A stretch of DNA of 64,000 nt from a plasmid: assembly GCF_053078305.1 (NCBI RefSeq), contig NZ_CP166875.1; one strand, written 5' to 3'. The position numbers and the translations under genes were made by a program. Numbering within the stretch: the stretch's first letter is position 1; each line of letters starts with the position of its first letter. Positions 17,079-23,357 of the stretch are shown one piece after another. The notes under the pieces were generated by a model, which was given only the letters and a program-made list of their open reading frames with translations, searched no databases and had not been told where the DNA came from.

Positions 17079-17714
17079 TGCCGCTCTGATTCTGACTACT
17101 GCAGTGTTGTCCTGTCTGCCGGGCGCACCTTCGGCTCCCGGCTGCCTGGCGGCATCCGGTCGTCAGGCCCGACTCCGACAGGCAGCTGCTGGCGCACCTG
17201 CCAGTCTCCGCCGAACCCGCTGGCGCGGTTTCGGGCTGTCGCTACGGTCCGATGCGTGAAAACCCCGGGCTTGCAGCGACCGTTCCGGTCGCGCCGCCTC
17301 TGTCGCGCCGTGGCCTGCGCTCCTGGCATCCCGGCAAAAGGCCGCCGGGATGTAAGGCGCAACGCCGTTTCGCAAACCGCGCTTCACGTCGTTGCGGCGG
17401 GTCCCTGCCCGTTGTTGTGTCCGGTGCCATTCACCTGTTTAAGCCCCTGTCGCCGGGGGCTGATACAGCCACAACCTGCCGCACTGACTGTCCAGGGTAA
17501 ATGAACAGCCCACAAAATTTTTTACCCAAAACCCGGTAAAAAATTTTGCGTTCTGCCCAGGACAGGTGCGTCAGGCCGTGGCAGTGATGCCCCTTGCGGC
17601 GAAGGTTCTCAAACAGGTGATGGTGAATACCGGAGGGAACAAAGAGCAGGTCCCCGCAAAACGTCAAAACCGCGGCTCCCGAAACTCAACAGATGATGGG
17701 GGCTGAAAACATCA
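17079..17714 (+). repeat. Frpo/ssi-like repeat element, copy 2, immediately upstream of ssb
   Basis: Near-identical to copy 3 over about 630 bp; ends in a conserved leader (ccgcggctcccgaaactcaacagatgatgggggctgaaaacatca) just before the ssb RBS. Confidence 0.85.
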
Positions 17715-17729
17715 ACAGAAGGAGACATC

Positions 17730-18251
17730 ATGGCAGTTCGTGGCATTAACAAGGTCATTCTCGTGGGACGTCTGGGAAAAGATCCGGATGTCCGTTACAT
17801 CCCCAACGGGGGCGCAGTGGCAAATCTGCAGGTGGCCACGTCAGAAAGCTGGCGTGACAAACAGACGGGGGAGATGCGGGAGCAGACAGAATGGCACCGC
17901 GTGGTGCTGTTCGGCAAGCTCGCGGAAGTGGCAGGTGAATATCTGCGTAAGGGCGCGCAGGTCTACATCGAGGGGCAACTCCGTACCCGTAGCTGGGAAG
18001 ATAACGGTATTACCCGTTACGTCACTGAAATCCTTGTGAAAACCACGGGCACCATGCAGATGCTGGGGAGTGCACCACAGCAGAACGCTCAGGCGCAACC
18101 GGAGCCTCAGCAGAATGGGCAGCCACAGAGTGCTGACGCGACGAAAAAAGGTGGCGCGAAAACGAAAGGCCGTGGACGTAAGGCCGCGCAGCCGGAGCCT
18201 CAGCAGCCGTCTGAACCCGCGTATGACTTCGATGACGATATTCCGTTCTGA
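17730..18251 (+). CDS. ssb: Plasmid single-stranded DNA-binding protein
   Basis: Translation [48 protein letters not shown]... with acidic C-terminal tail DFDDDIPF. Confidence 0.95.
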
Positions 18252-18302
18252 CTGGCCTGACTGTGATAACCGCCCCGTCCTGCGCGGGGCATCACCGGAG
18301 AG

Positions 18303-18542
18303 ATGAGGATGAGCGAATATTTCAGAATACTTCAGGGACTGCCGGACGGCTCCTTTACCCGCGAACAGGCGGAAGCCGTTGCCGCACAGTACCGGAACGT
18401 CTTTATCGAGGATGATCAGGGAACGCATTTTCGCCTGGTTGTCCGTCAGGATGGCACGTTGATCTGGCGCTCCTGGAATTTTGAGGACTGTGCCGGGTAC
18501 TGGATGAACCGGTACATCAGGGATTTCGGGATCCTTAAGTAA
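18303..18542 (+). CDS. Hypothetical protein, 79 aa (small conserved gene downstream of ssb)
   Basis: ORF in same orientation between ssb and the ParB-like gene. Confidence 0.6.
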
Positions 18543-18602
18543 GAGAGGTGCCGGACGGGGATCACGTCCGGCAGACATTAACTACACAATAAGGGGATAG
18601 TC

Positions 18603-22077: not shown

Positions 22078-22189
22078 GTGTGGTCAGTACGCAGGTATAT
22101 GGGCTATGATGTGCCCGGCGCTTGAGGCTTTCTGCCTCATGACGTGAAGGTGGTTTGTTATCCTGTCGTGTGGCAGAAGGACAAAAGCC

Positions 22190-22260
22190 CCGTAGTTAAT
22201 TTTTCATTAACCCACGAGGCCTCTGCATGTCTAGTCCACGTCAGTATGGCCTCTTACCGT
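22190..22260 (-). ncRNA. sok: Putative Sok-type antisense RNA of the hok/sok (flm) system
   Basis: Inferred from position: antisense to the mok/hok leader, as in F flmB/hok-sok; exact ends not determinable from sequence alone. Confidence 0.4.
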
Positions 22261-22442
22261 GCAAATTGCAAGGAGGAGTAAACCATGAAACTACCGGGAA
22301 ACGCCCTTATCTGGTGCGTATTAATCGTGTGCTGCACGTTGTTGATATTCACACTCCTGACCCGGAATCGCCTGTGCGAAGTCCGGCTGAAGGACGGATA
22401 CAGGGAAGTTACGGCAACAATGGCTTACGAATCCGGCGGTAA
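22227..22442 (+). CDS. mok: Mok-like overlapping reading frame (modulator of killing) of the hok/sok locus
   Basis: 71-codon ORF in a different frame overlapping hok. Confidence 0.5.
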
Positions 22443-22446
22443 GTAG
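22285..22446 (+). CDS. hok: Hok/FlmA-type small membrane toxin (53 aa)
   Basis: Translation [53 protein letters not shown], typical Hok family sequence. Confidence 0.9.
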
Positions 22447-22726
22447 CAACCTGGAGGCGGGCGCAGGCCCGCCTTTTCAGGGCTGATGCTGGTCTGACTG
22501 CACTGAAGCGCCTTTATAAAGGGGCTGCTGGTTCGCCGGTGGCCCCTTTCTCCTTGCTGGCATTGTAGCAGCATGAACAACCAGACTGTCAGGAAGGCCA
22601 CTTCCCTCCGGGAACGGGAATGAACGTGCGCCTGCGGCGCTCGTTCTTTTCCCCCGCCTTCTCTGTTTATGGCCAGTTGTCAGAAATGACATTACCTTTC
22701 CCGTGATTATTCTCTTTTTCTTCCTG

Positions 22727-23357
22727 CTCTGATTCTGACTACTGCAGTGTTGTCCTGTCTGCCGGGCGCACCTTCGGCTCCCGGCTGCCTGGCGGCATCC
22801 GGTCGTCAGGCCCGACTCCGACAGGCAGCTGCTGGCGCACCTGCCAGTCTCCGCCGAACCCGCTGGCGCGGTTTCGGGCTGCCGCTACGGTCCGATGCGT
22901 GAAAACCCCGGGCTTGCAGCGACCGTTCCGGTCGCGCCGCCTCTGTCGCGCCGTGGCCTGCGCTCCCGGCATCCCGGCAAAAAGACGCCGGGATGTAAGG
23001 CGCAACGCCGTTTCGCAAACCGCGCTTCACGTCGTTGCGGCGGGTCCCTGCCCGTTGTTCTGTCCGGTGCCATTCACCTGTTTAAGCCCCTGTCGCCGGG
23101 GGCTGATACAGCCACAACCTGCCGCACTGACTGTCCAGGGTAAATGAACAGCCCACAAAATTTTTTACCCAAAACCCGGTAAAAAATTTTGCGTTCTGCC
23201 CAGGACAGGTGCGTCAGGCCGTGGCAGTGATGCCCCATGCGGCGAAGGTTCTCAAACAGGTGATGGTGAATACCGGAGGGAACAAAAGGCAGGTCCCCGC
23301 AAAACGTCAAAACCGCGGCTCCCGAAACTCAACAGATGATGGGGGCTGAAAACATCA
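22727..23357 (+). repeat. Frpo/ssi-like repeat element, copy 3
   Basis: Near-identical to copy 2; ends in the same conserved leader immediately upstream of the RBS of the 23373 ORF. Confidence 0.85.

Follow-up and report, generated by a model that had tools for sequence, protein, structure and literature searches.

A 64,000-nucleotide stretch of the plasmid NZ_CP166875.1 (assembly GCF_053078305.1; here called the window) contains several copies of a 644-bp direct repeat, two of which bracket the genes from ssb through psiB and psiA to hok/sok. With a probability of about 90% we identify these repeats as class-1 promoters on single-stranded DNA (ssDNA), the Frpo/ssi/ssp1 elements, together with the conserved intergenic sequence surrounding them, and we regard recombination between the copies as a by-product. 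The copies are numbered 1 to 3 from left to right, followed by a partial fourth. An initial annotation of the window had described copies 2 and 3 as nearly identical direct repeats of about 630 bp, 5.6 kb apart, spanning 17079 to 23357. Alignment bears this out: 17079 lies 9 nt inside copy 2, 23357 agrees with the end of copy 3, the start-to-start spacing is 5,643 bp in direct orientation (repeat search and alignment), and 633 of 644 positions are identical in an ungapped global alignment (98.3%), with uninterrupted identical runs of up to ~176 nt. Chance is no explanation for a 644-bp repeat with 98% identity, and the arrangement of copies 2 and 3 is seen again in thousands of sequenced plasmids. 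The initial annotation does not mention the third full copy (copy 1), which is 92% identical to copy 2 or copy 3, and the partial fourth copy.

Homology of the repeats to the Frpo promoters of plasmid F

The repeats and their functional cores are located as follows.

Copy 1, direct repeat: 13737-14379; third full copy, of a distinct sequence type (repeat search and alignment)
Copy 1, Frpo core: 14020-14353, minus strand (ssiD match)
Copy 2, direct repeat: 17070-17713; Frpo2 position of plasmid F (F Frpo2, L005 9175-9639, maps here)
Copy 2, Frpo/ssiD-homologous core: 17353-17702, minus strand (ssiD match, DNA folding, covariation)
Copy 2, main hairpin: ~17367-17685, minus strand; A/T-rich apical palindrome at 17506-17555
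Copy 3, direct repeat: 22713-23356; Frpo1 position, after hok; its sequence groups with the pre-ssb type rather than with F Frpo1
Copy 3, Frpo/ssiD-homologous core: 22996-23345, minus strand (ssiD match of 87.3%, 351 nt)
Partial fourth copy: 23715-23813, just before the 95-residue ygeA-like gene; a 57-nt upstream and a 42-nt downstream segment abut

Reference sequences for F ssiD/Frpo and the Frpo elements of ColIb-P9 were taken from Samuel et al. 2024 (Supplementary file 4), and NC_002483 was used as the sequence of plasmid F. F ssiD/Frpo aligns over its full length (351/351 nt) to the minus strand at 17702-17353 and at 23345-22996, in both cases with 87.3% identity, and matches copy 1 at 79.7%. 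Frpo2 and Frpo1 of F itself map to the positions of copy 2 and copy 3, respectively, and the core of copy 2 is ~95% identical to F Frpo2. ColIb-P9 Frpo2/3 align over the apical 80–96 nt at ~80%. The published ssiD sequence is given as the active single strand, and it is the minus strand of the window that it matches. Transfer of F proceeds from a 5’ end at nic, so that the leading region enters first. By this established direction the transferred strand is the minus strand of the window, and since the flanking and leading genes all lie on the plus strand, pointing towards the origin of transfer (oriT), the transferred strand is also their template. The repeats are thus found where promoters of this class are expected: in the leading region near oriT and upstream of leading genes that are read from the transferred strand.

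The minus strand of copy 2 was folded as DNA between 17300 and 17730 and gave one imperfect hairpin of ~320 nt with a free energy of -125 kcal/mol (z = -11.2); none of 100 shuffled sequences was as stable. The plus strand of the same region reached -115 kcal/mol (z = -7.9). An alignment of 10 homologues (the window, F, two other plasmids, and candidates from Serratia and an insect metagenome) yielded a consensus hairpin of 78 pairs; in nine of these, both partners have changed in a compensatory manner. The minus strand also holds many G·T wobbles whose counterparts on the opposite strand, or in an mRNA, would be C·A mismatches. In double-stranded form, the region 16800-17800 has no match to the sigma-70 consensus.

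The Frpo element is already known from literature of 1997 to 2026. Frpo of F has promoter and primer activity on ssDNA in vitro (Masai & Arai 1997, as summarised in PMC9849209), and F plasmids carrying ΔFrpo1 or ΔFrpo2 lose early expression (Couturier et al. 2023, PMC9849209). For the homologues ssi1-3 of pESBL/ColIb-P9, class-1 status and transcription start sites determined by rapid amplification of 5’ cDNA ends (5’RACE) have been reported, and the F genes controlled by Frpo1 and Frpo2 are enriched in RNA-seq (PMC12672017). Priming in vivo has also been published (bioRxiv 2026.01.09.698686).

The repeats of the window share with Frpo1 (ssiD, ssp1a) and Frpo2 (ssp1b) of F the positions before ssb and after hok/flm, the orientation relative to oriT and the fold into a long hairpin. 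They differ from the F elements in that the shared repeat unit comprises 644 bp against ~450 bp in F, that a third full copy precedes a cassette with DUF3560 and methyltransferase genes, and that an additional cassette with a 100-residue gene is followed by a copy lacking the hairpin. The two bracketing copies are also more alike in the window (98%) than reported for F (92%), because the copy after hok is of the pre-ssb type. In the IncI1 plasmids ColIb-P9 and pESBL, ssi1-3 (Frpo1-3) belong to the same class-1 family and form three dispersed direct repeats of ~330 nt in the leading region, before early operons (ssb, psiB, ardA). The similarity to the window amounts to ~80% over the apical ~90 nt; unlike in F, the tip of the hairpin is the only region alignable by blastn, the stems having diverged.

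Several further observations concern the repeats themselves. Simple repeats are located exactly at the onset of repeat homology: a (CTGCTA)n run of ~7 units at 17027-17067, at the left edge of copy 2 and within an 80-residue open reading frame (ORF), and a short (GTT)n run at 13726-13737, at the left edge of copy 1. A 7-bp hairpin, GCGACCG-loop-CGGTCGC, lies in the upstream half of the repeat (17276-17292, 22919-22935, 13943-13959 and 23728-23744). Its 3-nt loop reads TTC in copies 2 and 3, whereas copy 1 and the partial copy have GAA, the reverse complement. A loop inverted in this way is what template switching inside a palindrome is expected to produce. RefSeq/PGAP annotates a pseudogene of ~206 bp (‘single-stranded DNA-binding protein, frameshifted’) and overlapping hypothetical ORFs within every Frpo repeat, with the pseudogene at 7202-7407 in relative L006, at 10269-10474 and 15948-16153 in L009 and at 4713-4918 and 10112-10317 in L008. 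This annotation is present even where the downstream gene is not ssb and is probably an artefact caused by the high GC content of the hairpin. An IS110-family (RNA-guided) insertion sequence is found at one fixed point of the repeat, equivalent to the step between 17692 and 17693 of the window at the 3’ base of the hairpin, where it separates the promoter from the ygeA-like gene (L003 8396-9774, CP088843.1; at least 13 E. coli plasmid records). The insertion point looks like a sequence-specific target inside Frpo.

In the partial fourth copy the hairpin part of ~352 nt is gone and the 57-nt and 42-nt end segments are joined, the junction reading CCTGCG followed directly by GCGGCTCCCG. The same hairpin-less state was observed in pFHI_NMBU_10_01 and E873p3. 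Slippage between short direct repeats at the base of the hairpin was considered as its origin and is not supported, as the junction lacks the form of a clean microhomology deletion.

The bracketed genes and a proposed mechanism

Copy 2 occupies the entire intergenic region between the 80-residue ORF and ssb. The genes that the initial annotation had placed between copies 2 and 3 (ssb, a ParB-like gene, psiB, psiA and hok/sok) were all recovered with NCBIfam and Rfam.

ssb: 17730-18251, plus strand; first gene after copy 2 (NF010292, E = 1e-111)
79-residue ORF: 18303-18542, plus strand; DUF905 protein in the RefSeq annotation of relatives at this position
ParB-like protein of 652 residues: 18603-20561, plus strand (NCBIfam)
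psiB, conjugation SOS inhibitor: 20613-21050, plus strand (NF010255, E = 2e-83)
psiA: 21047-21766, plus strand (NF010258, E = 4e-126)
hok/sok (flm-type), type I toxin-antitoxin system: 22116-22446, plus strand; Rfam sok at 22116-22287, hok ORF at 22285-22446
100-residue gene: 23373-23675, plus strand; directly 3’ of copy 3, in a cassette not present in plasmid F
95-residue gene: 23831-24118, plus strand; ygeA position, homologue of the gene directly after F Frpo1
Cassette between copies 1 and 2: 14594-17089, plus strand; 76-residue ORF, 453-residue ORF, S-adenosylmethionine (SAM)-methyltransferase match, 80-residue ORF
IS66-family element: within 26796-29473, minus strand, directly after a traJ fragment; TnpC 27057-28670, TnpB 28701-29051, TnpA 29048-29473

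The cassette between copies 1 and 2 is not found in plasmid F. Its 453-residue ORF corresponds to a DUF3560 protein in the RefSeq annotation of relatives and had no NCBIfam match in the window; the class I SAM-methyltransferase match at 16284-16847 is weak and below the NCBIfam cut-off. Judged from its sequence, the window belongs to an F-like plasmid with oriT at ~26 kb and the leading region to its left, because the traJ 5’ untranslated region and FinP (26753-26862, Rfam), antisense RNAs in traG and traI (Rfam), traM (26279) and an SLT transglycosylase gene (25356, minus strand) are present. traJ itself is apparently interrupted, the TraJ match being limited to the first ~58 codons (26796-27053). 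Between the DUF932 gene and the SLT transglycosylase gene next to oriT, the minus strand matches F ssiE, a single-strand initiation signal of another kind, with 95% identity (25334-25172). Upstream of copy 1 (~9500-13700) we observed a DNA methylase (9891-10574) as well as DUF1380 and antirestriction genes, the latter two judged solely from RefSeq annotation at the homologous positions of relatives. In F and pESBL, the corresponding operons are reported to be controlled by ssDNA promoters of classes 2 and 3 (PMC12672017).

The mechanism we propose borrows its steps from the literature on F and ColIb-P9. The minus strand would enter the recipient as ssDNA, each repeat core would fold into the imperfect hairpin of ~320 nt, and host RNA polymerase would take the hairpin as a promoter and proceed into the downstream plus-sense genes. 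Transcription from copy 2 would reach ssb, the DUF905 gene, the ParB-like gene, psiB and psiA; copy 3 would serve the 100-residue gene, the ygeA-like gene and the DUF932 gene, and copy 1 the DUF3560 and methyltransferase genes. The transcripts could also prime synthesis of the complementary strand, and formation of the duplex would abolish the hairpins and turn the promoters off. The copies need to remain alike for this function and are in direct orientation; they would therefore also be substrates of homologous recombination in the double-stranded plasmid. Unequal crossing-over would delete or duplicate whole promoter-plus-gene cassettes, while gene conversion would homogenise the copies. Loss of the ssb-hok cassette would remove hok/sok, which should kill most cells segregating the deleted plasmid, and would also remove genes useful at entry into a new host. 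By analogy with the known systems, the repeats would therefore exist as working ssDNA promoters before their own operons, with recombination as a rare by-product.

Natural deletions and duplications between the repeats

Couturier et al. 2023 have pointed out that recombination between Frpo1 and Frpo2 of F, which are 92% identical and separated by ~5 kb, could remove the interval, and proposed the flmAB (hok/sok) system within this interval as a safeguard (PMC9849209). Their conjecture concerns the same two repeats and the same interval as the initial annotation and follows the same reasoning; it was given there with no natural examples. As a recombination substrate copies 2 and 3 (644 bp, 98.3% identity, identical runs of ~176 nt) are well above the minimal length for RecA pairing. 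We tested the prediction with synthetic junction queries against PLSDB and complete E. coli genomes. In PLSDB, E873p3 contains the deletion junction between copies 2 and 3 as one contiguous match covering 100% of the query, and 16 further records match at ≥80%. E873p3, a toxin plasmid of enterotoxigenic E. coli (ETEC) with a truncated transfer region, shows the gene order methyltransferase, one repeat, 100-residue gene, and its whole sequence contains no ssb, DUF905 gene, ParB-like gene, psiB, psiA or flm-type hok/sok. In pLAO100, pMUB-MIN6-1, p00_3230-3 and A65EC p3 the methyltransferase gene is joined via a single repeat to the 95-residue or the 98/100-residue gene; several of these plasmids are typed as conjugative.

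Among complete E. coli genomes, 2,426 records contain the intact junction methyltransferase-copy 2-ssb at ≥80% coverage. The junction methyltransferase-repeat-95-residue/DUF932 gene is found in 35 records at ≥80% coverage and in about 13 more at 74–78%, so that the deletion occurs in ~1.4–2% of E. coli plasmid records with this backbone, a figure that includes some clonal redundancy. Among these records are pMAR2 of the enteropathogenic strain E2348/69 and a plasmid of ETEC E24377A. The repeat core surviving in the deletants is of the F Frpo1 type in some and of the pre-ssb type in others, and it is followed by either the 95-residue or the 100-residue gene. Since the crossover points differ in this way, the deletions are independent events. 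A deletion-type junction (methyltransferase-repeat-95-residue gene) was also observed at 154684-156865 of NZ_AP022362.1, a chromosome record of 5.2 Mb, which suggests a chromosomally integrated F-like plasmid.

We also considered whether deletants are rescued by a second hok/sok system. E873p3 and pMUB-MIN6-1 carry a Hok/Gef gene near RepFII, which has no DNA similarity to the hok/sok of the window and whose product is 46% identical to the Hok protein of the window. Cross-protection by this gene is unlikely for both of these reasons, and the explanation was rejected.

The reciprocal event, amplification of the block, had been predicted by the initial annotation as well. pIDPH8234-3 carries two tandem copies of the unit from the repeat through ssb to hok, which recurs after 5,399 bp and is identical over 5.74 kb, and in the unrelated pEC1515-3 the module is likewise duplicated in tandem. 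The query for the duplication junction matched 370 records at ≥80%, which is not a count of duplications, as nearby pieces are joined and compact intact modules also score; inspection was confined to contiguous matches, of which these two were true. At the neighbouring cassette, a direct junction of copies 1 and 2, i.e. the F-like state lacking the DUF3560/methyltransferase cassette, was found in 200 E. coli records, one of them 99.2% identical to the window. A few plasmids retain only a single repeat.

Traces of exchange are also found in the sequence types of the copies. In F and three other plasmids the copy at the position of copy 3 is of a different type (~89% identical), while copy 3 of the window is 98% identical to copy 2, which points to conversion or replacement as the source of its pre-ssb type. 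A mosaic of sequence types is plainly visible in F Frpo2 and in one other copy. The repeats resemble the attC sites of integrons, which are likewise DNA sites that fold as ssDNA and separate gene cassettes on conjugative elements. This is a resemblance and not membership: at attC sites an integrase carries out site-specific recombination, and these sites do not serve as promoters, whereas no integrase is involved in the case of the repeats, whose length appears to let them exchange by ordinary homologous recombination.

Relatives lacking exactly this interval, for which the initial annotation had recommended a search, thus exist, and the finding that it named as refuting, an interval always intact in relatives, is not what we observed. 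The proposed route of modular gain and loss stands as far as natural deletions and duplications are concerned. It is limited in that the initial annotation missed the identity of the repeats as Frpo promoters, that the idea had been published before and that loss is rare.

Competing explanations and significance for plasmid transfer

Could the repeats be maintained mainly as recombination modules, with selection for gain or loss of the anti-SOS/addiction block as a unit, as emphasised by the initial annotation? Deletion, duplication and presence/absence variants with junctions inside the repeats, found for every pair of copies, would agree with this. Conservation, however, tracks the hairpin, with its compensatory changes and its wobbles confined to one strand; a mere target of recombination would have no need of these. 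Promoter function has been demonstrated for the homologues, loss variants are rare (~2%), and the fully examined exact deletant between copies 2 and 3, E873p3, has a truncated transfer region. We therefore consider selection for recombination unlikely to be the main reason for the repeats. It is less probable still that the ~350-nt hairpin is a mobile palindromic element, similar to a miniature inverted-repeat transposable element (MITE), which has entered several intergenic sites and of which the fourth copy represents an empty site. The abutting flanking segments of that copy, from which exactly the hairpin part is gone, and the mixing of three hairpin sequence types among positions across plasmids could be read in this way. 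The junction between CCTGCG and GCGGCTCCCG shows no clean target-site duplication, though, and the missing segment does not coincide with the ends of the hairpin; no transposase is associated with the copies, all of which are confined to leading regions, have one orientation relative to oriT and always precede a gene, and ordinary deletion or conversion accounts for the pattern. A composite transposon was rejected, as the repeats are direct, enclose no transposase and are homologous to Frpo.

The structure might also act at the RNA level as a 5’ leader, or the repeats might encode small proteins. Each copy does contain ORFs of 82–88 residues, and RefSeq lists hypothetical proteins and the frameshifted ssb pseudogene within the repeats. 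An mRNA would be plus-sense, the strand which folds worse (z = -7.9 compared to -11.2) and on which the G·T wobbles turn into C·A mismatches; what has been annotated there is either a pseudogene or an overlapping hypothetical ORF within a palindrome rich in GC, and a 1-nt indel between copy 1 and copy 2 lies inside the 82-residue ORF. Of the explanations discussed, this one appears the most remote.

Several points weigh against the identification as ssDNA promoters with recombination as a by-product. Promoter function is assigned from sequence, fold and the homologues in F and ColIb-P9/pESBL. Neither inspection by hand nor a consensus scan of the transferred strand of seven homologues placed convincing -35/-10 hexamers in the hairpin; the best conserved candidates, TGGACA adjoining the A/T-rich tip and CAAAAT on the other arm, are both weak. 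Assembly error is a conceivable source of the tandem duplications, but they are present in two complete assemblies of unrelated plasmids. RecA dependence, event rates and direction (loss versus gain) we infer from the end states present in databases, and we infer the protective role of hok/sok too. Finally, the IS66-family element cutting traJ means that this copy of the plasmid may not currently transfer, and such a deficiency would relax selection on the leading region.

A more far-reaching possibility, which we put forward tentatively and hold to be doubtful, is that Frpo-type repeats serve as working boundaries of cassettes that are repeatedly deleted, duplicated and swapped, with hok/sok acting as a guard against deletion within the plasmid. 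The ssb-psi cassette guarded by hok/sok is missing in ~2% of records, compared to ~8% for the unguarded neighbouring cassette with DUF3560 and methyltransferase genes, and a guard of this kind would, if true, explain the difference. This contrast is the sole basis of the guard idea and also counts among the weaker points of our interpretation: it is confounded by shared ancestry and selection and is suggestive only.

Survival of a resistance or virulence plasmid through the first minutes in a new host is decided in its leading region. The gain from the present analysis is modest and empirical: natural deletants, duplications and variants of the neighbouring cassette have been found and counted, by which the published conjecture is borne out. 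Recombination between Frpo copies offers a simple account of mosaic leading regions, and the difference between ~2% and ~8% provides a countable signal for testing the idea of hok/sok as a safeguard.

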